The notes beneath the pieces are model-generated. The model saw nothing but the letters and a program-made list of their open reading frames with translations. It did no database searches and had not been told where the DNA came from. A stretch of 64,000 bases of DNA from Deltaproteobacteria bacterium (lineage in GTDB: Bacteria; Desulfobacterota; BSN033; UBA1163): the NCBI GenBank assembly GCA_018333535.1, contig JAGXTA010000046.1:20551-84550 (forward strand). Direction: 5' to 3'. The translations under genes were made by a program, and so were the position numbers. Every line of letters starts with the position of its first letter. Position 1 is the stretch's first letter. Below, piece by piece: positions 1,435-39,272 of the stretch.

Positions 1435-1435
1435 T

Positions 1436-1600
1436 AAAGGATATCAGGCTACCAGGAAAACAGGAAGCAGGATACCAGAAGCATTAGAATATCAGGTGAC
1501 ATGAAAGGTAAAAGATTCTAAATCTGACACCCTGATATCCTGATTTCCACCACCTGATAGCCCGATTTTCTGATAACCGATGGGCATTGATTCGAATCTT
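1436..1600. repeat. Intergenic ATCAGG...CCTGAT repeat element, copy A
   Basis: The left arm has repeated (N)ATCAGG units. The right arm has repeated CCTGAT units. The same architecture recurs at about 3790-3965 and 11440-11600. Confidence 0.6.
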
Positions 1601-1622
1601 ATATCCGAAAGGTTGAATATTC

Positions 1623-2144
1623 TTGAGACGTTCTAATCTTTTCTTGCCGTTGCTTCTTATCCTGTGCCTGGGATCACTCTTTCCACTCTTCCATTGTGCC
1701 CAAAGAACGAAGGACCCTGCCTCTGCGCCTGACTTCACGCTTAAAACCATCGAAGGTCACGAGGTTGCCCTCTCCGGATTGAGAGGGAAGGTGGTCTTGC
1801 TCGATTTCTGGGCAACCTGGTGCGGACCCTGCAAGGAATCGATCCCCCATCTGATCCAACTCTATAAAAGTTATCAGGACAAGGGATTCGAACTGATCGG
1901 GATGAGTACGGATAAAGCGGGAGACGTGGAGATGGTCCGCCGTTTTGTCAAATCGATGGACATCCCCTATCCCATCATCATGACTCCCGATGAAGTGGCC
2001 AGAAATTACAAAGTGACCGGCCTTCCCACCACTGTTCTGATCGATAAGGAAGGTAAAGTCCGGGAGAAGATCGTTGGATTTAATAGCGCCATCGGCCAAC
2101 AGATTGCAGCGAGGGTCGAAGAACTCACCTCAGAAAAACCCTAA
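1623..2144 (+). CDS. TlpA/ResA-family thiol:disulfide oxidoreductase (thioredoxin-like), secreted
   Basis: N-terminal hydrophobic signal, WATWCGPC motif and a TlpA-like length. The start is TTG in the ORF track, so the exact start is uncertain. Confidence 0.85.
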   Translation: MRRSNLFLPLLLILCLGSLFPLFHCAQRTKDPASAPDFTLKTIEGHEVALSGLRGKVVLLDFWATWCGPCKESIPHLIQLYKSYQDKGFELIGMSTDKAGDVEMVRRFVKSMDIPYPIIMTPDEVARNYKVTGLPTTVLIDKEGKVREKIVGFNSAIGQQIAARVEELTSEKP

Positions 2145-2820: not shown

Positions 2821-3750
2821 TTAAATCCCTGGGTTCATTCGGTGGCTGTTCGCTAATCTGGAGGCAATCTCAGTTACGCATTGGGCCGCCTTGGAACGGT
2901 AGTTCTCAAGAACCAACGGCCTTCTTTTCCGTATGGAGTTCCCCACATCCTGATCATAGACGATATAACCCAGATAGTGGAGTTGAATGCCGAAGTACTT
3001 CTGGCATGCGCTTCGAATCGAAAAACCGATCTCAATATCCTTTTTTGACCGAACCTGGTTTAAAATGAGATTGGGGTGAAACGTTGCGGCCTCCTCGACT
3101 ATCTTCAGGGCATCCTCTTCGTTGATACGCCTCACTTCTCTCAGGAGTTCATAAGGGGAGCGGATGCCCGCCTCGTTTTTCTGATCCATAGCTTCGTCAA
3201 TCAGGCTCTTGGCCGAATAGGAGGAAACGGCCTGTCTCAGTCGCCGATAAAAAGCACTTTTTAAAAACCGGTAGGTATTTTCAATGGAGGTTGGTTCGGG
3301 GGTCACCACCAGGATTCCTCCATCCGACATCAAAAAGAAGTCCAGAACGCTCAGGGCGTTGCCTCCACCCAGGTCGACCAGAATATAATCGCTCTCCAGA
3401 CTCTTAATGGATCGAAGGAGCTTCCTTTTCAGGGCGCTCTTCGCATCGGCCGCATTAAGAAGGTCTTGCGCTCCGGTCAGGAGCTGAAGATTGGGTACGC
3501 CGGTGTGGATGAGCGCATCTTTGAGATGGGGAACCCTCTTCTTGATGAAGTCTGAAAGAGAAGTTACGGGCGGTAGAAGGCCCAGAAAGGTGTGGAGGTT
3601 GGCCCCTCCCAGATCGGCATCGATCAGAATGACCCGTGAGCCCAATTTTGAGAGACAGATTCCGATATTGGTGGTGATAAAACTCTTTCCGCTTCCTCCC
3701 TTGCCGCCACCAATCGTCCAGATGACTCTCTGATGTTGATCTCGGGTCAT
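2821..3750 (-). CDS. MinD/ParA-family P-loop ATPase
   Basis: Deviant Walker A GGGKGGSGKS and the MinD/ParA/FlhG-like fold. 309 aa. Confidence 0.8.
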   Translation of the reverse strand: MTRDQHQRVIWTIGGGKGGSGKSFITTNIGICLSKLGSRVILIDADLGGANLHTFLGLLPPVTSLSDFIKKRVPHLKDALIHTGVPNLQLLTGAQDLLNAADAKSALKRKLLRSIKSLESDYILVDLGGGNALSVLDFFLMSDGGILVVTPEPTSIENTYRFLKSAFYRRLRQAVSSYSAKSLIDEAMDQKNEAGIRSPYELLREVRRINEEDALKIVEEAATFHPNLILNQVRSKKDIEIGFSIRSACQKYFGIQLHYLGYIVYDQDVGNSIRKRRPLVLENYRSKAAQCVTEIASRLANSHRMNPGI

Positions 3751-3789
3751 GCTTGCCTAACCTACCATAGCCAGAAGCCAATAAAGGTT

Positions 3790-3965
3790 TGGAATTAAAA
3801 AATTCAGATATCGATTCTGAAAAGGAAATCAGGAGATCAGGGATTCAGGAGGGAGGGTACCAGAACATCAGGGTACCGGAGAGAATCAAAAAAAGAATGA
3901 CTGACCCTGATGTCCTTATATCCTGATACCTGCAACTTGATATCCTGATATTCTGATAACCATGA
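3790..3965. repeat. Intergenic ATCAGG...CCTGAT repeat element, copy B
   Basis: Units aaATCAGG, agATCAGGG, attCAGG, acATCAGGG lead into CCTGATgtcc, atatCCTGATacc, ttgatatCCTGATattCTGATaacc. Confidence 0.6.
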
Positions 3966-4021
3966 AACTTTGCTTCGGATTTAGATCATAATCAATCGCT
4001 AAAAAATTAGAATACTATTGA

Positions 4022-5029
4022 CTACCAAACGCCGTCAATCTTTGCATGGCAATGCAGGCATTCCCCTCCCACCACCTCATTCCTGACAACCCTGAAACCC
4101 ATCCTTTCGATCACCCTTCGTCCACAATGGGGACATAAGGTATCCTCCCCTTCCTGCCCTGGGATATTACCGCAATAAACATATCGAAGCCCTGCCTTCA
4201 TCCCGATCTCCCTTGCCCGGTGAAGGGTTGCCGCTGGAGTTCTCGGAAGGTTGAGCATCTTATACGTGGGATAGAAGGCGGAGAGATGCCATGGAACCTC
4301 CGCCCCCAACGAGAGGATAAACCGGGCGATCTCTTCAAACTCTCTATCAGAATCGTTGAGGGTCGGAATGACGAGCGTGGTGATCTCCACCCAGATCCCC
4401 AACTCTTTCATCAATTTCAGGCTTTCGAGAACGGGCTTGAGCCTCGCTCCGCACACCTCCTTATAAAACTTCTCCTGAGAGCTCTTCAAATCGACATTCG
4501 CCCCATCGAGATAGGGCTGGATCGTTTTCAGAGCCTCCTCCGTCATATAGCCATTGGTGACAAAGACATTCCTGATCCCTTCCTGACTTGCCAGGACCGC
4601 TGTCTCATACGCATATTCAAAGTAAATGGTGGGTTCGGTATAGGTGTAGGAGATGGAACGGCATCGATTCTCCTTTGCGAGAGAAACGATCTTGGATGGC
4701 GGAACTACGGATCCATCAATTCTTTTTCCGTCGATCGGCATCTGGGAGATCTCATGATTCTGGCACTGGAGACAGTGAAAGTTACATCCCACCGTAGCCA
4801 TGGAGAAGGAGGTCGAACCGGGCAGGAGATGAAAAAGAGGCTTCTTCTCAATGGGGTCGACATTTAGGGAGATGGCCTTTCCGAAAACGAGACTGAAGAG
4901 TAGGCCCTCCCTGTTCTCCCTCACCCCGCAGATTCCACTTTTTGAAGGCGGGATGACACATCGATGACTGCAGAGGTGGCACTTGACCTTTCCCTCTTCC
5001 AAGGGACTATAAAGCATGGCCTCCTTCAT
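4022..5029 (-). CDS. AmmeMemoRadiSam-system radical SAM enzyme (AmrS-like)
   Basis: The N-terminal CHLCSHRC, the GICGVREN motif and the CNFHCLQCQNHEIS radical-SAM cluster motif fit pyruvate-formate-lyase-activase-like AmrS. Confidence 0.75.
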   Translation of the reverse strand: MKEAMLYSPLEEGKVKCHLCSHRCVIPPSKSGICGVRENREGLLFSLVFGKAISLNVDPIEKKPLFHLLPGSTSFSMATVGCNFHCLQCQNHEISQMPIDGKRIDGSVVPPSKIVSLAKENRCRSISYTYTEPTIYFEYAYETAVLASQEGIRNVFVTNGYMTEEALKTIQPYLDGANVDLKSSQEKFYKEVCGARLKPVLESLKLMKELGIWVEITTLVIPTLNDSDREFEEIARFILSLGAEVPWHLSAFYPTYKMLNLPRTPAATLHRAREIGMKAGLRYVYCGNIPGQEGEDTLCPHCGRRVIERMGFRVVRNEVVGGECLHCHAKIDGVW

Positions 5030-5077: not shown

Positions 5078-6256
5078 CTAAAGATCGAATTTGGGTAACT
5101 GCTGAAGGACATATTTCCGAATGACCTGAGGAGTGGGCAAGTCCTGAACGACCCTTTTATTCTGAATCAGAGGGAGAAGAAGCTCCTGAAAACGCCCTCC
5201 GCATGAACATCGATTTAACCCCTTGGCGGGGAATCTCCCTCTTGGCCGAAGAGGAACCACCCTGTCCTGAAGACATTTGGAGCATCGGAGGACGCTCTTC
5301 GAACCGGACAGCTTTCCCCTCTTCGCTAATGGCTTTCCTTCGATTTCGACGATGTCCATCGCCAGGTCGACGGACCTCGCGTTGGTAATGGAAGTTCCCA
5401 CTCCATAGGCATCCACCACAGGATTCAGGCTTAAGATACGTTTCTCGTCTAATCCCCCACTGACAAATATCTTCACATGACCAAATCCCCTGAGGTTGAG
5501 CTCCCAGCGGATCTCTTCAATAATCTTCCGGAAGTCTCCCCGCCTTGAACTGGGAGTATCGAGTCTGACGGCATAAAGCTTCTTCCCCAGGGCTTCTGCC
5601 ACACGGATGGCCTCTATCTTTTCATCATTGAAGGTATCGATCAGGGAAACCCGCTTTACCTTGGGATCGATCACCTCGTCAAAGGCTTTGGTCGCTTCCA
5701 CTGTATCGCCGATGAGCAGGACCAGGGCATGGGGCATGGTTCCGGAGGGCTCCTCATGGATCATCTCGGCATCCTTGACAACGGCAACACCGTCACATCC
5801 GCCGATAAAAGCATTCCGTTCCACCATTGGCGCAATCGCCGGATGGATTCGTCTCGCCCCGAAACTGATGACCCTCCGGTCTTCCGCCGCCTTTTTACAG
5901 CGGGCTGCCTTGGTGGCTACGCCGGAAGCCTGGCAGAGGAGACCCAGGATCGATGTCTCGAAGAGACCGAATTCCGTATACATCCCTTCGATCTCCATAA
6001 CCGGCTCGTAGGCCCGAAAGATCGTCCCCTCTTTCATGGCCCTCACTTTGACGGGGAGGTCTTTGAGGAGATAGACCGCCTCTTCAATCCCAGCCAGCAC
6101 GGCCCATCCGTATTCCTCAGGAAACCGTTTGGCGATGAATTCAGCCTTGACCCGTTTGTCAATCTTCTTTGCCTTGAGGATCTCCATCGTCCTCGTAAAA
6201 TAGACATCCGTATACTTGCCGGCCTTGATATCCTTTGGATCAGCGATATGAAACAT
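5078..6256 (-). CDS. Nicotinate phosphoribosyltransferase with a C-terminal zinc-ribbon extension
   Basis: The N-terminal MFHIADPKDIKAGKYTDVYFTRT...LKDLPVKVRAMKEGT matches the NAPRTase family. The C-terminal CSKC...CSCG ribbon is an extension. Confidence 0.8.
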   Translation of the reverse strand: MFHIADPKDIKAGKYTDVYFTRTMEILKAKKIDKRVKAEFIAKRFPEEYGWAVLAGIEEAVYLLKDLPVKVRAMKEGTIFRAYEPVMEIEGMYTEFGLFETSILGLLCQASGVATKAARCKKAAEDRRVISFGARRIHPAIAPMVERNAFIGGCDGVAVVKDAEMIHEEPSGTMPHALVLLIGDTVEATKAFDEVIDPKVKRVSLIDTFNDEKIEAIRVAEALGKKLYAVRLDTPSSRRGDFRKIIEEIRWELNLRGFGHVKIFVSGGLDEKRILSLNPVVDAYGVGTSITNARSVDLAMDIVEIEGKPLAKRGKLSGSKSVLRCSKCLQDRVVPLRPRGRFPAKGLNRCSCGGRFQELLLPLIQNKRVVQDLPTPQVIRKYVLQQLPKFDL

Positions 6257-10426: not shown

Positions 10427-10476
10427 CTCTCCCCCTCTCCCCTCCCTCGACGGGAGGGGGCGAGGGGGAGGGTGAG
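10427..10476. repeat. G/C-rich palindromic REP-like element (CTCTCCCCCTCTCCCC...GGGGGCGAGGGGGAGGGTGAG)
   Basis: Inverted repeat seen directly in the sequence. It is a member of the GGGAGAGGGCGAGGG repeat family dispersed in the window. Confidence 0.5.
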
Positions 10477-10577
10477 CAAAACACACGCGACCCATTTAAC
10501 CAAAGGCTTCGCCTAAAGGCGAGGGTTTTTCTCCCATTCCCCGAATGGGAGAAAAAATATTCCTGAAGAAGTTGAAT

Positions 10578-11435
10578 ATGAAAACATACGGTCTCTTTCT
10601 GCTGGCCCTTTTCTTTACACTCTTACCCTCCCAACAGGGACATGCTTCATCTCCCGGCAAACTCCTCCTCTTTGCAGGAGCGGCAAGCAAGCCTGCGACA
10701 GAAGAGGTGATCAAAACTTTCCGGGAGAAATTTAAAATACCGGTCGATGTAATCTTTGGAGGTTCGGGGTTTGTCCTTTCTCAGATGAAATTATCCAGAA
10801 GGGGGGATATCTATTTCCCGGGTTCATCCGACTTCATGGAAGTGGCAAAAAGAGAGGGGCTCGTCTATCCTGAATCCGAAAAAATCGTTGTCTATCTCGT
10901 CCCTGCCATCAATGTTCAAAAGGGAAACCCAAAGAGGATCTCTTCCCTCAAGGATTTAACGAAGAAGAGAATCCGTTTAGCCATCGCCAACCCGGAGATG
11001 GTCTGCGTAGGGACTTATGCGGTGGAAATTATCGAGAGAAACCTGAATTCACAGGAGAAGGAGAGTCTCAGGAGAAATCTAGTTAATTACACGGAAAGCT
11101 GTGAAAAAACCGCCAATGTCATCTCTCTGAGGGCGGTCGATGCGGTGATTGGCTGGCGGGTATTCCAGTATTGGGACCCGGAACGGATTGAAACGGTCTT
11201 CTTGAAACCCGAAGAAATTCCAAGAATCGGCTACATTCCCATCGCTATCTCCAGGTTTACTCAGGACAAGGTCTTGGCTCAAACGTTTGTCGATTTTATA
11301 CTCTCGCCACAGGGAAAATCCATCTTTCAGAGGTATAACTACATAATGGACCTCCAGGAGGCGCGCCGATTTACAAAACCAGATACCCCTGTGGGAGGAG
11401 AATATATTCTGCCAAAGGAATGGAGAACAAGGTAA
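10578..11435 (+). CDS. Molybdate/tungstate ABC transporter substrate-binding protein (ModA/WtpA-like)
   Basis: Signal peptide MKTYGLFLLALFF. A periplasmic binding fold follows an oxyanion-binding-like GGSG segment (ModA-like). Followed by permease and ATPase genes. An alternative start at 10545 lies inside a hairpin. Confidence 0.75.
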   Translation: MKTYGLFLLALFFTLLPSQQGHASSPGKLLLFAGAASKPATEEVIKTFREKFKIPVDVIFGGSGFVLSQMKLSRRGDIYFPGSSDFMEVAKREGLVYPESEKIVVYLVPAINVQKGNPKRISSLKDLTKKRIRLAIANPEMVCVGTYAVEIIERNLNSQEKESLRRNLVNYTESCEKTANVISLRAVDAVIGWRVFQYWDPERIETVFLKPEEIPRIGYIPIAISRFTQDKVLAQTFVDFILSPQGKSIFQRYNYIMDLQEARRFTKPDTPVGGEYILPKEWRTR

Positions 11436-11439
11436 AAAG

Positions 11440-11600
11440 CAATGAAACGGTTATCAGATGATCAGGTTATCAGGAAGTAGACATCAGGATATTGGGATTT
11501 CAGGTCAAACCAAAAGCCGTTATTCTTTACCTGAGATCCAGGTATCCTGATATTCTGCACCCTGTTATCCTGATCACCTGATATCCGTATTTTCCCGCAT
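11440..11600. repeat. Intergenic ATCAGG...CCTGAT repeat element, copy C
   Basis: GGTTATCAG, gATCAGG, ttATCAGG, acATCAGG, atttCAGG lead into atCCTGATatt, ttatCCTGATcaCCTGATatc. Confidence 0.6.
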
Positions 11601-11644
11601 ACTGGTTATTAATTGGTGATTGGAATTTCAACTAAGGAGGACAA

Positions 11645-12421
11645 ATGGGCTTCAGGTACACCATGATTGGCGCTGCCATATGTATCTTCATCTTCTACTT
11701 TGGCCTTCTTGCCTCGCTCCTCTTCTCGGCAAGCCTGAAGGGTTTCTGGGAATCCCTGTTGCATCCTTCCACCCTCTTCTCCATTCGGCTGAGCCTCATC
11801 GCCGCCACCCTCGCCACACTTTTAGCTGTGGCTATCGGTCTCCCGTCAGCCTATGCCCTCTCCCGCTTCCAATTCAGAGGAAAGCAAATCGTGGATACGT
11901 TTCTCGAAATTCCGATCATCATGTCGCCCATTGCCCTGGGCGCCTCATTCCTCGTCTTCTTTAATACTCCCTTGGGGGAAGCCATCCAGAGAAAAGGAAT
12001 CTTCTTCGTATTTGAATTTCCCGGCATCATCCTTGCTCAATTCGCCACCATTGCAGGTCTGGCAACCCGGCTGATGAAAGCCTCCCTTGATGAAATCTCT
12101 CCACGATATGAAGCCGTGGCCCGCTCTCTCGGCTCCTCCTCATGGCAGGCCTTTTATCGTGTTACACTTCCCCTCTCCTTCCGGGGGCTTTTAGCTGCGA
12201 TCATCCTCTCCTGGGCGAAGGCCGCAGGCGAGTTCGGCGCCACCGTGACTCTTGCAGGCGCCATGCCAGGAAAAACCGAGACCATGCCCATTGCCATCTT
12301 TACGGCTCTGGCTTCAGCCAACATAGAAAAGGCGATTGTTTTGATTCTCATCCTCGTCTTCCTTGGTTTGGTCGCACTCTACGCTGTCCGATTTACCGGA
12401 AAGATCTATCGTTATGATTAA
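11645..12421 (+). CDS. Molybdate/tungstate ABC transporter permease (ModB-like)
   Basis: Six TM segments and the EAA-like loop ...SWAKAAGEFGATVTLAG typical of ModB/CysTW permeases. RBS AAGGAGG lies upstream. Confidence 0.85.
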   Translation: MGFRYTMIGAAICIFIFYFGLLASLLFSASLKGFWESLLHPSTLFSIRLSLIAATLATLLAVAIGLPSAYALSRFQFRGKQIVDTFLEIPIIMSPIALGASFLVFFNTPLGEAIQRKGIFFVFEFPGIILAQFATIAGLATRLMKASLDEISPRYEAVARSLGSSSWQAFYRVTLPLSFRGLLAAIILSWAKAAGEFGATVTLAGAMPGKTETMPIAIFTALASANIEKAIVLILILVFLGLVALYAVRFTGKIYRYD

Positions 12422-12499: not shown

Positions 12500-12540
12500 C
12501 ACTAACATTCCCCCCCTTTGGCAAAGGGGGGCGAGGGGGG
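12500..12540. repeat. Palindromic hairpin CCCCCCCTTTGGCAAAGGGGGGCGAGGGGGG
   Basis: Perfect palindrome. A related copy lies at 12672-12712 (CCCCCTCTTTGCCAAAGAGGGGG) and another at 50985-51025. Confidence 0.5.
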
Positions 12541-12751
12541 ATTTTAAGAACAAATGCTTTCTTACGATAAACAGTTGAAAATATTTTCCCAGCATCTCAG
12601 AAAAAATATTACAGAGATGTCTTTGAGAATATGGGCGGAGTGATGGAAGGGATATGGAGTTGCTTATGATTTACAAAATCTCCCCTGCCCCCTCTTTGCC
12701 AAAGAGGGGGAGAGAAAAACCAGATATGACCCACTCGATAGGGAAAAGATT

Positions 12752-13846
12752 ATGATTAAGATTGAGGGGCTTACCATCCTTCTCGGTTCTTTTCGTTTAA
12801 AGGATTTCCACATTGAAATTGCGGAGGGAGAGTTTCACTTTCTCCTCGGTCCCACGGGTAGCGGGAAAACCCTGATCCTGGAGTCGATTATCGGACTGCA
12901 TAAACCCAAAAAAGGAAAGATATGGATTGGCGAAAAGGAGGTTCAAAACCTGCCTCCTGAGCGGAGGGAGATTTCTTATGTTCCTCAAGACCTGGCTCTC
13001 TTCCCGCATCTAAGTGTGAAGGAGAATATCCTTTATGGAATTAGGGCAAAAAATCACTCCTTAAAAACCTATGAGGAATATGTCGGGTCTCTCATTCAGG
13101 TCATGAAAGTTGGACATCTTCTCGAACGATACCCGGCCAATCTTAGCGGAGGGGAGAAGAAACGGGTGGCGCTTCTCAGAGCGCTGGCTCCAAAGCCAAA
13201 ACTCCTTTTGCTTGACGAGCCCCTCTCCGGTCTGGACCCCTCCATCAAATTTGAAATTCAGCAACTCTTAAAAACCCTCCACGCCTCTTTTCATCCAACG
13301 GTTTTATGTGTTTCCCATGACTTCGAGGAAGCCTACCTCCTGGGAGATAAGATGACCATTTTCATTGATGGAAAAGTGGAGCAGGTCGGAAAAAGAGACG
13401 ATGTTTTTTTAAAACCCAGATCCCAAAAGGTGGCACAATTTCTGGGGTTAAAGAATCTTTACAGGGGCAAAGTCCTGACAAAGGGGGAGGCCGATCAACG
13501 ATGGGTTCTCGACATCAACGGTCTCCGATTTTCCGTACCGGGCAGTGCCTGTCAGGATCAGATGGAGATAGGAAAAGAGGTGGACATCTACATCCGACCT
13601 GAAGAGGTGATGATCCTCCGTGAAGGGAAGTCTGTCAAAGAATCTCTGAAGAAGAATATCTTCGAGGGGAAAATTTCGGATATTGCCAATAGAGGCAGAC
13701 ACCATACCGTGGCATTCCAGGATGAAGAAAGACGGATCTTTTTCGAAATCTCCATTCCCAATTACGCCTTCCGGAATCTCGATCTGTCGATTGGTAAAAC
13801 CACAAAGGTCGCCCTCCGCGACGAATCCCTCTGGGTGATGGAATAA
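12752..13846 (+). CDS. Molybdate/tungstate ABC transporter ATP-binding protein with a C-terminal TOBE-like domain (ModC-like)
   Basis: Walker A GPTGSGKT, signature LSGGEKKRVAL and Walker B LLLDEP. The roughly 130-aa C-terminal extension is typical of ModC. Confidence 0.85.
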   Translation: MIKIEGLTILLGSFRLKDFHIEIAEGEFHFLLGPTGSGKTLILESIIGLHKPKKGKIWIGEKEVQNLPPERREISYVPQDLALFPHLSVKENILYGIRAKNHSLKTYEEYVGSLIQVMKVGHLLERYPANLSGGEKKRVALLRALAPKPKLLLLDEPLSGLDPSIKFEIQQLLKTLHASFHPTVLCVSHDFEEAYLLGDKMTIFIDGKVEQVGKRDDVFLKPRSQKVAQFLGLKNLYRGKVLTKGEADQRWVLDINGLRFSVPGSACQDQMEIGKEVDIYIRPEEVMILREGKSVKESLKKNIFEGKISDIANRGRHHTVAFQDEERRIFFEISIPNYAFRNLDLSIGKTTKVALRDESLWVME

Positions 13847-13878
13847 TTTAAGAGGATGCTGAAAAAGCCAACCGCCAT

Positions 13879-13947
13879 GTCACTCCCGCGAAAGCGGGAG
13901 TCCAGAAGACCTTTGAAAAACTGGATTCCTGCTTCCGCAGGAATGAC
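13879..13947. repeat. Structured inverted-repeat module IR-a (outer stem GTCAC.../...GTGAC enclosing two hairpins)
   Basis: The hairpins are TCCCGCgaaaGCGGGA and TCCTGCttccGCAGGA, within the outer stem GTCACTCC...GGAATGAC. Confidence 0.55.
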
Positions 13948-14077
13948 CTTCTTCAGCCAGAATGGACTTTTTCAGCAACCTCCTAATAAAACCTCCTAAT
14001 AAATCTTGACGAAGCCGTAGTTTTATGAGATGTTTACAGCACAATGATAGTTGGCACAAACCAAAGGAGAAACTGCG

Positions 14078-14521
14078 ATGGGCGCCCGTGACGAATTCGC
14101 AACCAAAGATGATTTAGAAAAATCCTTAGGAAAATTTAAAGAAGAGATTATCCATGAATTTCATATTGTTGCTGAGGGACTGACTGACCATATGAAACTT
14201 CTGGCTGAAGGCCATTCAGGTTTAGCCCAAAGACTTGACCGGGTGGAAACAAGGCTTGGCGGAGTAGAGATCAGACTTGATCGAACAGAAGCAGGTCAGT
14301 TGGGAATCGTTCAACGACTTGATCATATGGAAACAAGGTTTGACCATATGGAAACAAGGTTTGACCATATGGAAGCAGAAAACGTACGTCAGCACATGGA
14401 AACTCGCTCACTCATTAAACTCTCCTTTTCCGAACTGGACAACCGACTCTCCAGTCTGGAGTTACAGGTCAAAGAACTGCAAGAATGGAGAAAACAGGTC
14501 CAGGATAGGCTTCAAATTTAA
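14078..14521 (+). CDS. Hypothetical coiled-coil protein with tandem heptapeptide-like repeats (RLDHMETRFDHMETRFDHMEAE)
   Basis: RBS AAAGGAG lies 7 nt upstream of ATG 14078. Heptad-like charged repeats. Contains a 21-bp tandem DNA repeat. Confidence 0.5.
   Translation: MGARDEFATKDDLEKSLGKFKEEIIHEFHIVAEGLTDHMKLLAEGHSGLAQRLDRVETRLGGVEIRLDRTEAGQLGIVQRLDHMETRFDHMETRFDHMEAENVRQHMETRSLIKLSFSELDNRLSSLELQVKELQEWRKQVQDRLQI
14321..14383 (+). repeat. Tandem 21-bp repeat x3 (GACCATATGGAAACAAGGTTT) inside the coiled-coil ORF
   Basis: Seen directly in the sequence. The third unit is degenerate. Confidence 0.8.
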
Positions 14522-14805
14522 CATTCCTCTTTTAAACCATTATATCTATCCATCATTATCTTTTCCCTACCCATCAGAAAATACAACCCCTTATTTGCAT
14601 AGAAAATAGCTTCCTTAAATCCCTCCCCGCCTCCCTTTGCCCTCCAGTTCAGAGACCGCTCTGGGTCGGAGACCAAAGGGAGGTGTAATTATCCCCCTTT
14701 GCAAAACTGATCCTTACCCATAACCTGGGTTGCTGGACACAAGGGTTAAGTTGAATATTGTTAACAGGTCGATATCATTATTAATTTTTAAGTTTGTCAT
14801 TCCTG

Positions 14806-14864
14806 CGGAAGCAGGAATCCAGATGTTTCTGTTGGTCCTGGATTCCCGTTTTCACGGGAATGAC
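14806..14864. repeat. Structured inverted-repeat module IR-b (reverse complement of IR-a)
   Basis: The hairpins are TTCCTGCggaaGCAGGAA and TTCCCGttttcACGGGAA, within the outer stem GTCATTCC...GGAATGAC. Confidence 0.55.
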
Positions 14865-17337: not shown

Positions 17338-17479
17338 CTGAAATGCCTCACCTAAAGAATTATTCCAGCGGATGGATTACAGTCACTGCTGTTTTTAGCT
17401 GTTAATGTCCGCTTTCAAAGCGTAATCCTCATCCTCAAGGATCACACTCGGAACAACATTTGTAGGTGCTATAGGCACT

Positions 17480-17704
17480 CTGAAAACTGGAAAGTATAAA
17501 ATAGAGCTTCTGTTAACCCCGTTTGAAGGCCCCAGCATTCCTGCCTGTCGGCAGACAGGTATGCTTGAGGATGGTAGAAATAGAAAGCATCCCTGCCTGT
17601 CGGCAGACAGGAGCTCCTCATTTAGTGTGGGGTTAAACCCCTGCCTCTTCTAACGGGGTTTACTCGCCCTCCATCTGAATCTCAATCTTTTTGGGTTTCT
17701 CGCA
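17480..17704. repeat. Direct repeat DR1 (about 225 bp). It contains two CCTGCCTGTCGGCAGACAGG palindromes and a copy of the last 15 codons of mobB.
   Basis: Near-identical to 18428-18650. The end of the repeat encodes ...CEKPKKIEIQMEGE*, compared with ...IEIQIEGE* for authentic mobB. Confidence 0.75.
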
Positions 17705-18355: not shown

Positions 18356-18427
18356 AGCTCTGCGCCTATCATAACCTTCAATTCCTGAACATGGTTGCAG
18401 TAATGACTTGGAGGTGAAATACGCAAA

Positions 18428-18650
18428 CTGAAAACTGGAAAGCATAAAATAGATATCATGTTTACCCCGTTAGAAAGCCTCAGCATTCCTGCCTGTCGGC
18501 AGACAGGTATGCTGAGGATGGTAGAAATAGAAAGCATCCCTGCCTGCGGCAGGCAGGAGCTCCTTATTTAGGGCGAGGTCAAACCCCTGCCCTTTCTGAC
18601 GGGGTTTACTCGCCCTCAATCTGAATCTCAATCTTTTTGGGTTTCTCGCA
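18428..18650. repeat. Direct repeat DR2 (about 223 bp) overlapping the authentic 3' end of mobB
   Basis: See DR1. Together the repeats bracket the hicAB cassette. Confidence 0.75.
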
Positions 18651-19256
18651 TCCCTTCAATGAACGGACCATTCCCTTAATCGACCCTAACAGGAAATCTC
18701 TGATAAAAGGTTTTAACGGAACGGCCCTGTCATCTACCCTTAGAGTGATTTGTTCTTCCTTTTTTGACTTTAAAAACTTCTTTTCGATAAAATCACCCAC
18801 TCCTTTGACATCATCAAGAAAGAAGCAGGAGACCCCGACATTGAACTCCTTGTCCGATACAATGGCGATGAGGTTATCCTCTTTGGTGCAGAGAAGCTCC
18901 TTGTGCTTTTCCGTTCTGAAGATTTCGATCTTCGGTTGGACATCCTTTTTGTAGCCCTCTGAAAGAATAAGGTCTACATCCTGAACCAACTTGTCCCGGA
19001 TTTCATCCAACCGTAAATCCTTCTCCACATCCCGGATCAGCGCCACTTTGGCAGGAGAGGAGATGATCGTTGTATGGGCGCCTGCCTGCTTATGCCGCCA
19101 GCTATCCTTCCCCTCCCGGTCCACCTCAAACCCGTGAACATCGTGCTTCACGGTTGCGATCCGGTAACCCCTGCGGACTAGCTCAGGCAAAAGTTTCTCG
19201 ATAAATGTGGTCTTTCCGCTATCTGACTTACCAACAATAGAAATGATGGGAATCAC
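18606..19256 (-). CDS. mobB: Molybdopterin-guanine dinucleotide biosynthesis adapter protein MobB
   Basis: IVGKSDSGKTTFIEKL...VKH Walker-A region. Probable GTG start with RBS AAAGGAG 6 nt upstream. The ORF track extends a further 25 codons upstream. Confidence 0.85.
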   Translation of the reverse strand: MIPIISIVGKSDSGKTTFIEKLLPELVRRGYRIATVKHDVHGFEVDREGKDSWRHKQAGAHTTIISSPAKVALIRDVEKDLRLDEIRDKLVQDVDLILSEGYKKDVQPKIEIFRTEKHKELLCTKEDNLIAIVSDKEFNVGVSCFFLDDVKGVGDFIEKKFLKSKKEEQITLRVDDRAVPLKPFIRDFLLGSIKGMVRSLKGCEKPKKIEIQIEGE

Positions 19257-19262
19257 GCTAAA

Positions 19263-19375
19263 CTCCTTTGGAATATTGGAATGTTGGAACAATGGAATAA
19301 TGGGGAAGGCTGAGAAGATTCTTTTCGACACAACATTCCATCATTCCATAATTCCATTCTTCCATGATCAAAAGT
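19263..19375. promoter_or_regulatory. Array of inverted TGGAAT/ATTCCA repeats between moeA and mobB
   Basis: GGAATATTGGAATGTTGGAACAATGGAATAATGG faces CATTCCATCATTCCATAATTCCATTCTTCC. This is either a long imperfect hairpin or an array of protein-binding sites. Confidence 0.45.
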
Positions 19376-20582
19376 TTCGTTCCAGCAATTGCACCTTCAC
19401 TTTCTCCCCTGCCCTGACAATCTCTTGGCTTTCGGGGATGACGATAAGGCCATTGGCCCTGACCATGGATCTCAATATCCCTGACCCCTGTGGACCTGTC
19501 GTTGTCACCGAATAGCCGTCGTTTTCAAATGAGACCATGGCCCGGATAAAATGTTTTTTCCCCGGCTCTTTACGAATTTCCTCCTTTAGAACAGCCTCGA
19601 TAACAGGCTGAAAGATTTGCCGATGGCCCATCATCTTCAAGAGCGATGGCCTTACAAACTGTTCAAAGGTGATCATGGAGGAAACAGGGTTTCCCGGAAG
19701 GCTGAAGGCTGGCTTCTTATCAAACATCCAGAAAGCCACGGGTTTCCCTGGTTTCATTGCGACTCTCCAGAATATCATCTCCACGCCCAGTTCCTTCAGG
19801 ACATCCCTGACGAAATCATAATCCCCTACGGAGACACCCGCTGACGAAATAAAAACATCAGACCGAAGCCCCTGAAGAATCTTCTTTTTAATCTCATCTT
19901 TTTGGTCTTTCGCAATTCCCAATTGAATCGGGATCGCTCCGCACTCCCTGACCTGGGCGGCCAATGTGTAGGAATTGCTGGAGACAATCTTCACCCCATC
20001 CAGGCTCTCACCCACATCCACCAGTTCCTCACCAGTACAGAGGACCGCCACTGATGGCCTTTGATAAACCGAGACGAATGACCTTCCCATAGAGGCAAGC
20101 ATCCCGATTTCTGATGGACGGATGATATCCCCTTTGGTGATCACCCGATCTCCCCTCTTTACATCCTCCCCTGCCCTTCGGATGTACCCACCGGGAAAAC
20201 CAGCCTTCAGAATGATGACAAAACCGTTTCCCCTTTCCGTCTCCTCAACAGGCACAACCGCATCAGCGCCTTTTGGGATGGGGGCGCCGGTCATAATTCT
20301 TATGGCCTGACCCTTTTGGACTGTTTTTTCCGAAATGAATCCAGCGCGAAGATCTTCAATCACTTCTAAGCGGACAGGATTCTTTTCAGAAGCATCCGGA
20401 ATATCTTCATACCTGACCGCATAACCGTCCATCCCCGAATTATCATAAGGGGGAAGATCACGAGGGGCAATCATATCCTCCGCAATCACCCGGCCCAGGG
20501 CATCCAGAATGGATACCTTCTCAAACCCCATGGGCTGGATGTGAGAAAGGGTTTTATCTAAGGCTTCTTCTACGGTGATCAT
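19368..20582 (-). CDS. moeA: Molybdopterin molybdotransferase MoeA
   Basis: 404 aa. MoeA N-terminal and MoCF-biosynthesis domains. SGMDGYAV motif. Confidence 0.9.
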   Translation of the reverse strand: MITVEEALDKTLSHIQPMGFEKVSILDALGRVIAEDMIAPRDLPPYDNSGMDGYAVRYEDIPDASEKNPVRLEVIEDLRAGFISEKTVQKGQAIRIMTGAPIPKGADAVVPVEETERGNGFVIILKAGFPGGYIRRAGEDVKRGDRVITKGDIIRPSEIGMLASMGRSFVSVYQRPSVAVLCTGEELVDVGESLDGVKIVSSNSYTLAAQVRECGAIPIQLGIAKDQKDEIKKKILQGLRSDVFISSAGVSVGDYDFVRDVLKELGVEMIFWRVAMKPGKPVAFWMFDKKPAFSLPGNPVSSMITFEQFVRPSLLKMMGHRQIFQPVIEAVLKEEIRKEPGKKHFIRAMVSFENDGYSVTTTGPQGSGILRSMVRANGLIVIPESQEIVRAGEKVKVQLLERNF

Positions 20583-25590: not shown

Positions 25591-26126
25591 AAGTTGCTGT
25601 CAGCGCAACAGGAAAAGACCTCAATTGCCAAATCGATCCAAGGTTTGGAAGATGCCAGTATTTTATCTTTATCGATCCTGAGACCATGGAGTTTGATGCC
25701 TTTGGGAATGAAGGGTTAATGGCAATGGGTGGTGCCGGGGTTCAGGCCGCACAGCTTATTGTCCAAAAAGGGGCAAGCGCTCTGATTACGGGCAATCTTG
25801 GACCCAATGCCGCTTCAGCTCTCTCAGCATCAGGAATCAAAGTCTACTTAGTTCCTGGAGGGACAATAAGGGAAGTTACCGAAGCATTCAAGGATGGAAA
25901 ACTTCAGGAGGCAAGTGGGCCTACGGTTCCTCCTCATTTTGGAATATCCCCTTCTCCATCCCTCTCCCCCAAGAGACTGTGTCGTAATTCCGTTCATGGT
26001 TCGAGAGCCTCACCACGAACGGATTATGACATGTTGAAAATCAATCACTTAGCCGTTCGTCCTGAGCGTGTCGAAGGGCGAATGGCTAATTATGACACAG
26101 TCTCCAAGGGGAGAGGGCGAGGGTGA
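25587..26126 (+). CDS. NifX-like domain protein with a low-complexity C-terminal tail
   Basis: MKVAVSATGKDLNCQIDPRFGRCQYFIFID...ITGNLGPNAASAL...GIKVY. The last about 200 nt are highly structured DNA, so the true C-terminus is uncertain. Confidence 0.65.
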   Translation: MKVAVSATGKDLNCQIDPRFGRCQYFIFIDPETMEFDAFGNEGLMAMGGAGVQAAQLIVQKGASALITGNLGPNAASALSASGIKVYLVPGGTIREVTEAFKDGKLQEASGPTVPPHFGISPSPSLSPKRLCRNSVHGSRASPRTDYDMLKINHLAVRPERVEGRMANYDTVSKGRGRG

Positions 26127-26257
26127 GGGGGAGTATGGGTGGCCGTAGAGGTTAAAGAACGAATATTACGAATAGCTACGAATTATTCGAATAAAATCCT
26201 TTCGTTAAATTCGGTACCATTTGAATAATTCGCCTGTGAAAGAAAGGAAGGATAATT

Positions 26258-28951: not shown

Positions 28952-29023
28952 AAAAACCCTCCCCTTTTCCCCTCTCCCTGCTGGGGATAGGGTAAGGGTG
29001 AGGGGTGACAGGTAACGAAGATC

Positions 29024-29890: not shown

Positions 29891-30320
29891 TGAGGTGGGC
29901 TACCTCGTCTATAATGAAACGTTGATCGATCACTTTATGCATCCCAGAAATGCGGGAGAAATAGAAAACCCCGATGCAATGGCGACCGTTGGTGATCCTA
30001 CCTGCGGGGATTTTATTAGGGTGTACCTGAAGGTGGAAGCCGGGAAGATATCCGTCTTTAAATTTTTGACCCAGGGTTGTCCTGGAGCCATTTCCACTTC
30101 CAGCATTGCCACAGAAATGGCTATTGGTAAGACTCTCGATGAGGCGTTGAAATTGACAGACAACGATGTGATCGAAGCTGCCGGTGGCATCCCGTCAAGA
30201 AAAGCCCACTGCTCCCTTCTGGCAATCAGAGGATTGCATCAGGCCATTTTGAATTATCACACCTCATCCCATCCCTCGCCCCAAGAAGGAAGGGGGGAGG
30301 GTGAAGAGGAAAGGAAGTAG
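29856..30320 (+). CDS. NifU N-terminal/IscU-like Fe-S cluster scaffold domain protein
   Basis: HFMHPRNAG...GDPTCGD...TQGCPGAISTSSIATEM...GKTLDEA. RBS GGTGGAG. The C-terminal 17 aa are encoded by a G-rich REP element. Confidence 0.8.
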   Translation: MSQVEEMEQLSDEVGYLVYNETLIDHFMHPRNAGEIENPDAMATVGDPTCGDFIRVYLKVEAGKISVFKFLTQGCPGAISTSSIATEMAIGKTLDEALKLTDNDVIEAAGGIPSRKAHCSLLAIRGLHQAILNYHTSSHPSPQEGRGEGEEERK

Positions 30321-33131: not shown

Positions 33132-33839
33132 ATGGCCGAAGCAATAGATGGATGCGTGAAACCGGCAAAAGGGCCAATTATGGCTGGAGAATCGAAAGCC
33201 TCTCAACTGTCACCAATTCAAAAGGAGGAAATCAAAATGATCGCTCGAGTTGGCAAACCGGCGCCCGATTTTGAGGCAAGCGCCTATGTGGATGGGGGAT
33301 TCAAGAACATTAAGCTTTCAAATTATAAAGGAAAGTGGGTCGTCCTTTGCTTTTACCCTGGAGATTTTACCTTTGTCTGACCTACTGAATTGTCGGCAGT
33401 TGCCGCCAAATATCAAGAATTCAAGTCCCTTGGCGTAGAATTTTTATCATTCAGCACAGACAGTCGTTTTACCCACAAGATCTGGCAGGAGGAGGAGCTC
33501 TCAAAAATGGTTCCAGGTGGAGTGCCATTTCCAATGCTGTCAGATGCAGGTGGTCGTATTGGTAGTGTCTATGGAGTCTACGATGAAGATGCAGGGGTGG
33601 ACATTCGGGGTCGTTTTTTAATCGATCCGGATGGAGTCATTCAAGCCATGGAGACGGTCACGCCACCGGTGGGCCGGAACGTTTCTGAACTGATCCGACA
33701 GGTCAAGGCTTTTCAGCATACACGCGTTACAGGTGAGGTGATGCCTTCCGGATGGCAGCCTGGAAAACCGACCTTAAAGCCCGGTCCTGATTTGGTGGGA
33801 AAAGTTTGGAAGGTCTGGAAACCGGAAATGGCCTATTAA
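33132..33839 (+). CDS. Peroxiredoxin (AhpC/Tsa family) with in-frame UGA (selenocysteine predicted) at the peroxidatic-Cys position. Copy 1.
   Basis: ...FYPGDFTFV[TGA 33378-33380]PTEL... where the family has FVCPTE. The ORF track shows two same-frame ORFs split only by this TGA. The N-terminal 35-aa extension is conserved by synonymous changes in copy 2. Confidence 0.8.
33392..33407 (+). promoter_or_regulatory. Candidate bacterial SECIS hairpin 11 nt downstream of UGA in copy 1
   Basis: GTCGGCAGTTGCCGCC, a small stem-loop with GUU in the loop. Conserved in copy 2 at 38734-38749. Confidence 0.4.
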
Positions 33840-34853: not shown

Positions 34854-34920
34854 TTTCCTCTCTCTCCCCCATGCGCCTGCCTGCCGGTAGGCAGGGGAGA
34901 GGGCGAGGGTGAGGGGGAAT

Positions 34921-35658
34921 ATGGAAGAACTCAAAAAAGTCTATTTCATAGCTAAAAAAGATATGGGGGCCTACTACCTCAAGCCTCCCTTAATCAGTTG
35001 GGGATTGATGCTTCCCATCGTCTTTGTATTAGCTTTCTATTTCAGAAATCCGGCGGGAATCAAAGAGGTCGTCCCAGGATTGATTGGTTTGACCCTTCTC
35101 TTCTCATGCACGTCCATGGCAGCCATCGTGATTACCTTTGAGAAAAGAATAGGTGCTCTGGAGCGGCTCCTCCTGGCACCATTGGAGATCAGAACGATCC
35201 TCTTCGGCAAGACCCTTGGAAGTTCTGTATTCGGGTTGGTTATCACCATCGTCATCACAATATTTCTCATTCCAATTATAGGCCTTTCTATTAATTATCC
35301 CTTTTCTTTTTCTCTCATTATCATCCTTTCTGGTATCGCCTTCTCACTCCTTGGAATCCTTATTTCTGTAGGAGTAAAGGAAGTCTTCGAAGCCATGACC
35401 ATGTCCAATTTCTTTCGATTCCCAATGATATTTTTATGCGGGGTCTTCTTTCCTGTGCCTTCCATGCCCTTCCCTCTTCCTATCCTCTCTTATCTCCTAC
35501 CATTGACCTATACGGTTGATGGTTTGAAACATTGCCTGTTGGAAGATAAAGGAATGATCCCTTTTTATCTGGATTTATTAATTTTATTAGGATTCGTTTT
35601 TTTACTCTTTAGTCTCTCGTTATTCATTTTTAAGAAAAGAATTCGCCAAGAATTCTGA
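34921..35658 (+). CDS. ABC-2 family transporter permease
   Basis: Six TM segments with an ABC-2-like topology. The ORF track begins at 34909 inside a REP element. Confidence 0.8.
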   Translation: MEELKKVYFIAKKDMGAYYLKPPLISWGLMLPIVFVLAFYFRNPAGIKEVVPGLIGLTLLFSCTSMAAIVITFEKRIGALERLLLAPLEIRTILFGKTLGSSVFGLVITIVITIFLIPIIGLSINYPFSFSLIIILSGIAFSLLGILISVGVKEVFEAMTMSNFFRFPMIFLCGVFFPVPSMPFPLPILSYLLPLTYTVDGLKHCLLEDKGMIPFYLDLLILLGFVFLLFSLSLFIFKKRIRQEF

Positions 35659-37307: not shown

Positions 37308-38459
37308 ATGAGATCTTTTCTTAATCAATATGTTAAATTACCCATCGTTTTATTTGCCTTAATTCTTCCCTTATTTTTTACTATATCAATCTCTCTCGCT
37401 TTAGACTTCGCTCCCATTCGAACCCCGTCCACCGGCTATCAACCTCAATTTCAAGTCTCAGGGAACAAAATCTACTATGTCTGGCATGAGTACGATGGTC
37501 CCTATCGGCAGATTTTCACTGCGGAAATGAACACTGATGGGACAGGATGGAGGTCAGAAAAAAGAACTTCTGGCCAATTTGATAAAGTCTTTCCTCAACT
37601 TCAGGTTGCGAATGACAAGATCTATTATGTTCGTCAGCAACCTGATCTAACAATAAATCGCCAGATCTGGACGATGGAGATGAGCATTGACGGAACAGGA
37701 TGGAAAGAGGTTCAGAGGACGAATACCCCCTTTGATAAGCAGTTTCCCCAGCTACAGGTGGTTGGCAATAAAATTTATTATACCTGGAATGAATCAGATG
37801 GAAAACACCGCCAGGTATGGACAGCAGAGATGAATTTAGATGGGTTGGGCTGGGAGGCAGTGAAAAGGACCTCAACACCTTATGACAAATTTGAGCCTCA
37901 GCTTCAGGTCGTGGGTGAAAAAATCTATTTCGTTTGGAGGGAGTTTGACGGAAGACATTTTCAGATCTGGACGGCTGTCATGGATATTGATGGGAAAGGG
38001 TGGCAAGAAGTGAAGCGGACAAATACCCTGTTCGACAAACATAACCCGCAACTCCAGGTGGATGAAGGAAGAATCTACTATACCTGGCATGAAGCAGATG
38101 GCCCGGATTGGCAAAAAGCAAGATATCAGATATGGACAGCTCAGATGAACATCAATGGAACAGGATGGCTGGCGAATCAAAGAACCTTTGTAGGCTTTGA
38201 TAAGTATACCCCCCAATTACAAGTTCAACGAGGAAGAATTTATTATATCTGGGAGGAATCTGATGGGAAATATCGTCAGATTTGGACGGCTGTGACGAGT
38301 AAGGATGGAACGGGATGGATATCTGAAAAGAGGACGACATCTCCTTATGGAAAATACGACCCCCAATTTCAGATTGTTGGGAATAGAGTTTATTATGTGT
38401 GGCACGAAGACCACGGACCTACTGAACCCATCTGGGTGGCTATAGAGACACTAAAATAG
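37308..38459 (+). CDS. Secreted repeat protein with about 6.5 tandem copies of a roughly 46-aa unit (beta-propeller-like)
   Basis: Signal peptide. Repeats of [48 protein letters not shown]. Confidence 0.7.
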
Positions 38460-38473
38460 AAAGGAGGTTAAAT

Positions 38474-39181
38474 ATGGCTGAAGCAAAAGATGGATGTGTG
38501 AAGCCGGCAAAGGGGCCCATCGGTTTGGCGGAAACCAAAACCTCTCAAACCGCACAAATCCAAAAGGAGGAATTGAAGATGATGGCTCAAGTTGGAAAAC
38601 CAGCACTGGATTTTGAAGCGAGTGCCTATATCGACGGGGGTTTTAAAAATATCAAATTATCTGATTATAAAGGCAAATGGGTAGTCCTCTGTTTTTATCC
38701 CGGTGATTTCACGTTCGTTTGACCTACCGAGTTGTCGGCAGTTGCCGTCAAATACGATGAGTTCAAATCGCTCGGAGTTGAGGTTTTGTCATGCAGTACA
38801 GATAGCCGCTTCATCCACAAGATCTGGCAGGAAGAAGAACTCTCGAAGATGGTGAAAGGTGGGGTTCCCTTTCCGATGCTGTCGGATGCAGGAGGCCGCA
38901 TCGGGAGTGCCTACGGCGTCTACGATGAAGAAGCAGGAGTCAATATTCGGGGTCGTTTTTTGATCGATCCGGATGGGGTCATCCAGGCAATGGAGACTGT
39001 TGCTCCACCGGTCGGCAGGAACGTTCCCGAACTGATCCGGCAGGTCAAGGCCTTTCAGCATGTGCGTGCAACGGGTGAGGTCATGCCTTCCGGATGGCAA
39101 CCTGGGAAACCGACCCTAAAACCCGGACTGGATTTGGTTGGCAAAGTATGGAAAGTCTGGAAACCCGAGATGGCTTTTTAA
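38474..39181 (+). CDS. Peroxiredoxin (AhpC/Tsa family) with in-frame UGA (selenocysteine predicted) at the peroxidatic-Cys position. Copy 2.
   Basis: ...FYPGDFTFV[TGA 38720-38722]PTEL.... About 75-80% nt identity to copy 1 across the whole gene, including the N-terminal extension. Confidence 0.8.
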
Positions 39182-39272
39182 CACTATTCCCTGACCCCCT
39201 GCCTACCGCGAGGCAGGCATCCCTCTCCCCCTGCCTACCGGCAGGCAGGCGCTGGGGAGAGGGAGAGGTAAA

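Follow-up and report, generated by a model that had tools for sequence, protein, structure and literature searches.

Paired arrays of short tandem units were described in Geobacter metallireducens by Aklujkar et al. in 2009 (PMC2700814), with 24, 21 and 8 paired sites in three classes, each site being made of 3–5 tandem units of 7–9 nt on opposite strands. The class consensus sequences are GTTGCTYN, TCTCCGTS[Y] and MTYCTGA, the last being the 7-nt unit of class 3, which is repeated five times. The sites are intergenic, as between proB and proA, where the spacer of G. sulfurreducens holds a different repeat; IHF/HU-type global regulators were predicted to bind them, and insertion sequences (IS) lie at fixed distances from some of the sites (PMC2700814). 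Intergenic direct repeats of 6–42 nt, together with palindromic families, have been reported in G. bemidjiensis (PMC2996986). The subject of the present analysis is the ATCAG foldback, an intergenic repeat made of two facing arrays of short units, of which three copies are found in the 64-kb stretch of contig JAGXTA010000046.1 (Deltaproteobacteria bacterium) that is called the window below.

We consider the three sites, with a probability of roughly 0.55, to be copies of a non-autonomous foldback family that is mobile or was so recently, behaves like a miniature inverted-repeat transposable element (MITE), resembles a bacterial interspersed mosaic element (BIME) in its mosaic build, and whose units are putative protein recognition sites. 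The evidence for mobility comes from presence/absence differences between near-identical genomes, a subfamily found at 16 unrelated loci, nesting of copies in other repeats, and internal deletions.

Plan of the ATCAG element

A relaxed scan of the window, which asks for at least four half-sites with at most one mismatch each on either side, returns exactly three foldback copies, each of which reads directly as runs of NNATCAGG, a spacer and then runs of CCTGATNN. Clusters (at least 3–4 relaxed half-sites with their complements within 200 nt) are absent from all of 100 dinucleotide-preserving shuffles of the window, and the opposite polarity, with CCTGAT first and ATCAGG second, does not occur in it. 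The total number of ATCAGG hexamers in the window is only mildly high, 67 against 52 ± 7 expected, and therefore the signal lies in their clustering. A profile search of the window finds the same three copies and nothing further, with scores of 91–114 bits that are nearly equal on both strands. Chance or low complexity as the origin of the clusters is ruled out by the shuffles and by the array-less matches in viral contigs described below.

The plan of the element was derived from an alignment of six sequences, with each of the three copies entered in both orientations, and from a 39-sequence MAFFT alignment that includes copies from other genomes. The element begins with GG, followed by three 8-nt units of the form NWATCAG(G/A), a variant unit, three more units, a loop, the mirror image of the arm and a terminal CC. 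The variant unit in the middle of each arm is 6–7 nt long (WRGYRGG, e.g. AAGTAG, TAGTGG or ATGCAGG), and the loop between the arms consists of 25–30 nt of free sequence. From GG to CC the element measures 129–151 nt, with a mode of 138–140 nt, and reaches about 215 nt when an outer shell is present; it is non-coding and requires no open reading frame (ORF). Read from GG-NW-ATCAG to CTGAT-WN-CC, the arms are mirror images and form terminal inverted repeats, and the profile scores the two strands alike. Each arm is by itself a direct array of 8-nt units and is not self-complementary. The tetranucleotide GTAG is found only inside the central variant unit of some copies (AAGTAGAC, TAGTGGGT).

With both arms pooled, the five positions of the ATCAG core are conserved at 95, 84, 97, 94 and 98%, respectively. 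The sixth position is G in 75% of the units and the base preceding the core is T in 60%, while the other spacer base is nearly free.

Copy c1 (1439–1578, 140 nt) has its left arm at 1439–1496, the loop at 1497–1522 and the right arm at 1523–1578, and scores 91–92 bits on both strands. Its left arm is composed of the units GGATATCAGG CTACCAGG AAAACAGG, the variant AAGCAGGAT and a second half running from ACCAGA to ATCAGG, and its right arm ends with CTGATAACC. The copy is located between a thioredoxin gene (1102–1434, + strand) and an AhpC/TlpA-like gene (1623–2144, + strand). Copy c2 (3824–3961, 138 nt, 97–98 bits) has arms at 3824–3880 and 3906–3961 with central variants at 3850–3858 and 3928–3935, and lies between the genes of a ParA/Mrp-like ATPase (2821–3750) and a radical-SAM protein (4022–5029), both on the − strand. 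Copy c3 spans 11443–11601 with the remnants of an outer shell, TGAAAC at 11443–11448 and GTATTTTCCCGCATA at 11587–11601. Its 138-nt core (11449–11586, arms 11449–11504 and 11530–11586) scores 114 and 103 bits and separates a solute-binding protein gene (10545–11435, + strand) from an ABC permease gene (11645–12421, + strand). The three copies are given without strand.

These positions correct only slightly those of a sequence-only reading of the window, which had reported all three clusters but had placed the start of c2 at 3790, taking in 34 nt of flank. The ends GGTTATCAG...CTGATAACC that it noted are real and belong to the general GG-NW-ATCAG...CTGAT-WN-CC form. Its count of four to six units per side falls short of the actual arm, which has six WATCAG-type units spaced in 8-nt phase and a single variant unit in the middle. 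Its view that the copies share an architecture rather than a strict sequence understates the homology, which is evident from the profile scores and from the 87% identity, loop included, between c3 and a copy in another genome. As it had stated, the three copies lie in intergenic DNA, and the redox or transport genes to which it drew attention are incidental neighbours, with no common theme of function beyond that of ordinary operon neighbours.

In other genomes the location of the copies is similar. For the first set of copies, analyzed with a crude ORF caller, 49 of 62 scorable ones lie between co-directional genes, 8 between convergent and 5 between divergent ones, and the median gap to the neighbouring gene is about 30–50 nt. 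Given that the spacers are within or between co-directional genes, co-transcription of the copies with the adjacent genes is probable. An all-against-all comparison of the neighbouring ORFs found no recurring protein family except the ubiquitous ABC ATPases.

Hairpin folding and conservation of the cores

The long, imperfect, bulged hairpin proposed in the sequence-only reading is real, and uneven among the copies. The RNA folding energies of c1, c2 and c3 are -41.7, -55.4 and -72.9 kcal/mol, with z-scores of -2.1, -4.4 and -9.8, and the corresponding z-scores for single-stranded DNA (ssDNA) are -2.6, -3.3 and -7.2, with only -1.7 for a fourth copy, c4, located outside of the window. Hairpins of this kind might act in cis in the manner of a repetitive extragenic palindrome (REP) at the RNA level, where selection would maintain the fold to stabilise the upstream mRNA or to direct its processing and thereby set the ratio of operon products. 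Most copies indeed fill short spacers between co-directional genes, the symmetry of the element gives a hairpin in either orientation, and the predicted hairpins of -42 to -73 kcal/mol are in part very stable relative to shuffles. The junction between a binding-protein gene and a permease gene, where c3 resides, is a classic REP position. We nevertheless regard this explanation as improbable. The folding of c1 as RNA and of c4 as ssDNA is little better than that of shuffled sequences, a hairpin would not need the same hexamer across phyla, and the copies are not conserved at orthologous sites. Moreover, the arms show no covariation. When the 39-sequence alignment is placed on the mirrored structure, 75.7% of the cells pair, compared with 77.3% when the letters of the 3' arm are shuffled among sequences, and all 500 of 500 shuffles pair at least as well as the observed sequences, so the pairing is no higher than that given by column composition. 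The eight pairs made only of spacer bases are unpaired in 59–79% of the sequences. In 63 copies, each of which was given the orientation of the co-directional genes on its two sides, G·U pairs are not favored over A·C on the sense transcript, with 98 wobble-type and 84 mismatch-type variants and no significant position.

Since the cores are conserved on both strands while their pairing is not, it is the sequence that is conserved and not the hairpin. The independent retention of the same hexamers in both arms appears to be the signature of DNA sequence recognition, as distinct from a conserved RNA or DNA helix. Searches of Rfam with the window and nine other loci returned only a tRNA at the gathering threshold and only miRNA-like hairpin matches far below threshold in an E-value search, which rules out a known RNA family. 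A structured non-coding RNA is likewise not supported, there being no covariance-model match, no compensatory change and no strand signal, and the small-RNA role suggested in the sequence-only reading is unsupported on the same grounds. No promoter-like or terminator-like sites were found inside the copies. The left arm contains CAGGA motifs, and a role as a CsrA sponge was considered and dropped by reasoning, as the motifs would be sequestered in the helix and the element has no orientation.

Cores conserved equally on both strands without a pairing constraint are also what an array of binding sites in double-stranded DNA would show. The phased WATCAG units, (TATCAGGN)n, could accordingly be host arrays, bound by a nucleoid-associated protein or global regulator and kept for chromosome organisation or gene control, with dispersal being secondary. 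Proteins of the IHF/HU type come into question, as does a ribbon-helix-helix protein coating tandem boxes of 7–8 bp. W-ATCA-G is identical to the WATCAR half-site of the IHF consensus in E. coli, and the MetJ, ParG and omega repressors bind tandem boxes of 7–8 bp. However, no TTR half of the IHF consensus is found at the appropriate distance, the flanking functions are unrelated, divergent spacers, which contain promoters, are avoided, and several unrelated cores with the same architecture coexist in one genome. Copies are also missing from the same spacers of close relatives where the coding DNA is 98.6% identical, and unrelated repeats are found there instead. We therefore think it doubtful that host arrays account for the copies, although exactly such a function was proposed for the paired arrays of G. 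metallireducens (PMC2700814).

A more specific version, a ribbon-helix-helix operator or centromere array similar to the MetJ boxes, ParG sites or omega heptads, does not fit the placement of the copies. The copies are not at a cognate promoter or centromere, and c2 alone is placed upstream of a ParA/Mrp-like gene, the other copies being between unrelated genes, mostly co-directional pairs. The regulator array that was among the proposals of the sequence-only reading survives in part: binding of a protein is compatible with cores that are conserved in the absence of conserved pairing, while gene-specific regulation is unlikely because copies are lacking in the equivalent spacers of the 98.6% identical relatives.

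Spread, turnover and nesting of the copies

A look-up with the exact thioredoxin protein sequence identified the source contig, L001 (JGI sample 3300001813), which reaches 9 kb further upstream and contains the fourth copy, c4, 9 kb upstream of the window between two ABC-2 permease genes. The same look-up returned related contigs, L002 and L004–L006, from Lake Tanganyika and elsewhere. Their flanking genes are 96.5–99.7% identical to those of the window (98.6% across trx and ahpC-parA, 96.5% across the radical-SAM gene), and none of the four has an ATCAG element at the position of c1 or c2. The spacers of these relatives corresponding to window positions 1435–1690 and 3754–4020 are wholly non-homologous and hold a G-rich palindrome, a CCAA/TTGG array or a GGTAACG array instead. 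At c1 the replaced block extends from the stop codon of trx into the AhpC/TlpA-like gene and includes its signal-peptide codons up to the conserved HC|AQ, from which point on the mature protein is identical (window 1435–1690 compared with L002 477–700 and L006 919–1105; DNA identity 98.6–99.7%). At the position of c3, L002 retains the left arm only in part, and a different repeat follows. In a single pair of planctomycete genomes the element is found at an orthologous site, with 85% identity.

The element is widespread. A scan of species-representative genomes, with a pattern that fits most copies but not all, yielded at least 115 loci, of which at least 78, from at least 47 assemblies, match the profile with 25–124 bits and mostly at full length. 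The loci that do not match the profile are plain chance matches. The profile-matching loci that were listed share the plan of three units, a variant and three units and the length of 129–151 nt, and are homologous across about ten phylum-level labels. Planctomycetota are represented among these listed matches by Pirellulales, Planctomycetia, Phycisphaerae and Sedimentisphaerales, accompanied by a PVC-group bin and Spartobacteria; Syntrophaceae, Syntrophorhabdus and Thermodesulfobacteriota are present together with two ‘Deltaproteobacteria’ metagenome-assembled genomes from Lake Tanganyika. The list further includes Elusimicrobia UBA6262, the Chloroflexota Anaerolineales, Anaerolineae and Chloroflexia, Clostridia, Omnitrophota, Aegiribacteria and Shapirobacteria, a beta-proteobacterial bin, a weak gammaproteobacterial match, a Sediminibacterium variant with GATCGGG units and two unclassified bins. 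Copies are hence not confined to the three loci of the window, a confinement that the sequence-only reading had named as evidence against a dispersed element, and are present on the same contig, in related populations and in at least 47 other genomes. In Syntrophia-like genomes the motifs ATCCGAAA/TTTCGGAT flank the ATCAG copies about 10 nt from their ends.

It may be asked whether such arrays arise in place, by slippage of a short seed, as in a microsatellite, and template switching across the hairpin, with no copy ever having moved. The number of units does vary, since one arm has grown to 13 perfect units in some genomes (L020, L074, L008 and L029), and one-armed arrays occur in L022 and in L001 at 380–425. 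Judging from the 13-unit arms, slippage acts on the arrays as well. As the origin of the element, however, the local process is very unlikely and is already largely refuted by loops and shells common to unrelated loci (c3, c4, L116 and the subfamily described below). The 3 + variant + 3 plan, the GG/CC ends and the length recur in at least 47 genomes, and template switching would result in complementary arms, which these are not.

The subfamily was obtained by scanning metagenomes with a 23-nt string specific to the lineage of c3 and c4. Of the 25 loci found, L150 was excluded as a chance match in a coding-like region, and the remaining 24 together with c3 and c4 represent 16 unrelated genomic positions, as judged by the flanking proteins. 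Wherever genes were called on both sides they are co-directional (15 of 15 positions). The full-length members possess an outer shell, composed on the left of (GTAAC)ACTTTAGCCCTTTGAARC abutting the GG end, and on the right of an asymmetric module of about 35 nt (CGTATTTTnCCnCACAAAAGTCATT...) followed by GTTTCAAAGCGCTAAAnnGTTAC; the full shell has been lost from c3. The asymmetric shell is oriented with transcription in 7 cases and against it in 8, which argues against a strand-specific RNA role and weakly against a strand-biased single-strand mechanism.

Several members of the subfamily are placed in the centre of other foldbacks. L137, L161 and c4, at unrelated loci, are centred in TGGAAT/ATTCCA foldbacks, and the full-length members L147 and L152, also unrelated, in CCAA/TTGG foldbacks. 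Directly after c3, at 11602–11630, there is an 8-nt half array of the TTGG type (CTGGTTATTAATTGGTGATTGGAATTTC), without strand, which resembles what is left of the right arm of a CCAA/TTGG foldback that would have had c3 nested inside it. Planctomycete copies are surrounded by further shells of (AAGTGMGCTAAAG)n and (GGTGAGTG)n units. Internal deletions of the hairpin type are seen in L153 and L141. Copies can in turn be interrupted near the apex by the repeat GATCATTGCAAAATGATCAATTAGCAATGATCA..., at two different unit positions, one in L149 (2516–2612) and the other in L156, where the site is the same as in L002 (10428–10476). The contigs of L002 and L156 stop within this repeat, which suggests that assembly broke off there, while that of L149 continues about 25 nt beyond it. 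An insert of 21–26 nt (GCACCGTAAGGCGTCCTGTGG and relatives) is present in the central variant unit or the loop of planctomycete copies (L090 at ~1700–1730, L094 at ~5780–5810 and L007 at ~5540–5600).

The window contains an uninterrupted TGGAAT foldback at 19266–19368, without strand, which has the same architecture, (TGGAATNN)x4, a loop and (NNATTCCA)x4, but does not belong to the ATCAG family. It is neighboured by moeA (19368–20582, − strand) and a mobB ORF (18606–19331, − strand). In related genomes ATCAG copies are found inside a TGGAAT-type foldback similar to this one.

Other repeats occur in the window as well. A period-7 TTCGAAT/TTCGGAT array is located upstream of the thioredoxin gene (1011–1075). 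A family of G-rich palindromes (GGGGAGAGGGCGAGGGTGAGGGG and relatives) has members at 10438–10481, 12509–12548 with 12675–12711, 26095–26138, 28970–29013, 30267–30304, 34854–34924, 39188–39271, which includes a 32-nt tandem at 39188–39250, and 50972–51023; in L002 the c1 spacer is occupied by a repeat related to these. Inverted repeats of the GTCATTCCTGCGGAAGCAGGAATCC type (13885–13947 and 14796–14860; 32 nt, 94% complementary, 848 nt apart) are positioned around a small ORF at 14051–14521. The 21-nt repeats within this ORF (14230–14363) were considered as iterons of an origin, and this was rejected, as they encode the heptad repeats of a coiled coil. The cumulative GC skew has its minimum at about 13000–14000, genes before it being mostly on the − strand, and possibly marks a replication-related switch or the boundary of an island; the GC content falls to 0.41–0.42 at 14–18 kb. 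Tandem repeats of about 150 nt (50 codons) at 37469–38416 read as a repeat protein (...YYxWxExDG...QIWT..MxxDGxGW...). A 300-nt segment is duplicated at 33189–33488 and 38531–38830 (77% identity, 5.3 kb apart), and two blocks of about 105 nt each, with 86–90% identity and a spacing of 946–948 nt, are shared by 17460–17704 and 18408–18650.

Proposed mobility and comparison with known systems

Units conserved in 8-nt phase, with a fixed polarity and mirrored ends, are most simply read as binding sites for a protein that moves the element. Comparable repeats are found in subterminal positions in some transposons and in the arms of foldback elements of eukaryotes. We propose that the units are read by a sequence-specific DNA-binding protein, which would most likely be the enzyme moving the element in trans, or alternatively a nucleoid protein recruited to it. 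The cores would be retained for propagation, while the 2-nt spacers and the loop would drift freely. Copies settle in short co-directional spacers, often in the centre of other foldback repeats, and their turnover is much faster than that of the genes around them. A transcript of the element could form the bulged hairpin, which in this scheme looks like a by-product and not a selected feature.

Several observations weigh against mobility. The whole-spacer differences between relatives fit recombinational allele replacement as well as simple insertion, and the orthologous spacers compared, being wholly non-homologous, provide no clean junction between a filled and an empty site; a look-up with the permease gene for an empty site returned only the same strain. 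The flanks of the copies are A/T-rich and partly inverted, and by eye, with no formal scoring, the aligned flanks contain no consistent direct repeat. Nowhere in the roughly 1.1 Mb of retrieved sequence is a transposase-like gene flanked by a pair of arms, and no transfer vector was seen among the viral contigs, plasmids and phages searched. The conservation of the two outer units (1–2) is partly imposed by the search pattern, which leaves the inner and variant units unaffected. Finally, foldbacks built on other cores (TGGAAT, CCAA) coexist in the genome, so that either several recognition proteins are needed or the mechanism is blind to the core. The probability given to a mobile family stays at the level stated above because no moving protein, parent element or target duplication was found and the spacer differences could be due to recombinational allele exchange.

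The searches for vectors and partners were as follows. In 2.9 million viral contigs the same pattern has 12 matches, all by chance and without arrays, and c3 has no blastn match among PLSDB plasmids or INPHARED phages, on which basis a plasmid- or phage-borne element was rejected. A scan for solo arms gave mostly noise. The single pair of arms around a gene is in L056 (581–1275), where ATCAGT-type arms (TTATCAGT units and their complement) 600 nt apart surround an NGO_1070-like ORF of 147 aa, and a third arm of this type precedes the gene of an HTH_36 protein. The NGO_1070-like ORF and the adjoining HTH_36 protein were rejected as the autonomous partner, neither being a transposase. No REP-associated tyrosine transposase (RAYT) was seen among the proteins neighbouring the copies.

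It is tempting to extend the mobile family to a wider group, although this extension is tentative and we hold it to be distinctly less probable than mobility of the ATCAG family itself. The ATCAG element may belong to a hitherto undescribed ‘onion’ class of pan-bacterial foldbacks with phased units of 7–9 nt (ATCAG, TGGAAT, CCAAT, CTTTAGC, GGTGAGTG and others). Such elements would home to the centres of hairpin repeats, replace whole spacers between near-identical genomes, and depend on machinery for recognition or mobilisation that has spread horizontally and reads the units at the DNA level.

A non-coding plan of 140 nt kept across about ten phylum-level labels, with cores that do not pair, points to shared machinery for reading the sequence. 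Should the family be mobile, the bacterial non-autonomous elements, of which few kinds are recognised, would gain a foldback-type class, and the wholly different operon spacers of strains whose genes are 98–99% identical would be explained. If the copies are protein-binding arrays of the host, they would provide a test of the 2009 hypothesis of ‘global regulator sites’ in Geobacter. The repeats break metagenome assemblies, several contigs ending inside them; they are a potential source of error when small RNAs and regulatory sites are sought, and may serve as strain markers.

Searches by sequence words and by keywords found Geobacter genome papers and no published description of the ATCAG family. 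The paired sites of G. metallireducens are similar to the ATCAG element in being opposite-strand arrays of tandem units with a variable spacer, intergenic and also inside operons, in tens of copies. Of the unit consensus, only the CTGA/TCAG core of class 3 (MTYCTGA) is common to both, and the polarity of this class is that of the ATCAG element. The Geobacter sites differ in their consensus and period, contain fewer units and lack a central variant; their authors regarded them as peculiar to a single genome and did not suggest that they move (PMC2700814). Supplementary material searched for ISGme8 and ISGme9 yielded nothing.

STRR arrays of heterocystous cyanobacteria consist of intergenic tandem units of 7 nt, sometimes as inverted arrays, into which very small repeats are inserted. 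They differ from the ATCAG element in phylum, unit length and sequence; the 21–26-nt inserts of the planctomycete copies are reminiscent of such very small dispersed repeats.

The sequence-only reading had named a MITE and a REP/BIME-like element as candidates, and a mobile non-autonomous element, MITE- or BIME-like, is the best supported of its proposals. REP, BIME and REPIN elements are also intergenic, often inside operons, and form hairpins from inverted doublets, with mosaic motifs and families that co-exist in one genome. However, a REP is an imperfect palindrome of 20–40 nt with a GTAG or CGTC head that is mobilised by RAYT, whereas the ATCAG arms are non-palindromic direct arrays, and membership in REP therefore fails.

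MITEs such as Correia/NEMIS, RUP and Nezha share with the ATCAG element the small size, the lack of coding capacity, multiple copies, inverted ends, an intergenic location, variation among strains and frequent co-transcription. The ATCAG element is non-coding and under about 500 bp, has inverted ends, and occurs in many copies whose loci are not orthologous and which may be present in one genome and absent from a close relative. In MITEs the terminal inverted repeats are plain and come from a known IS, and target-site duplications are present, while the ATCAG arm is a phased 8-nt array. In its build the nearest match is the eukaryotic foldback-type element. The ATCAG element is in kind a bacterial intergenic foldback, a MITE/BIME-like repeat, and what is unexpected about it is a phased hexamer plan that extends across many phyla without a pairing constraint.

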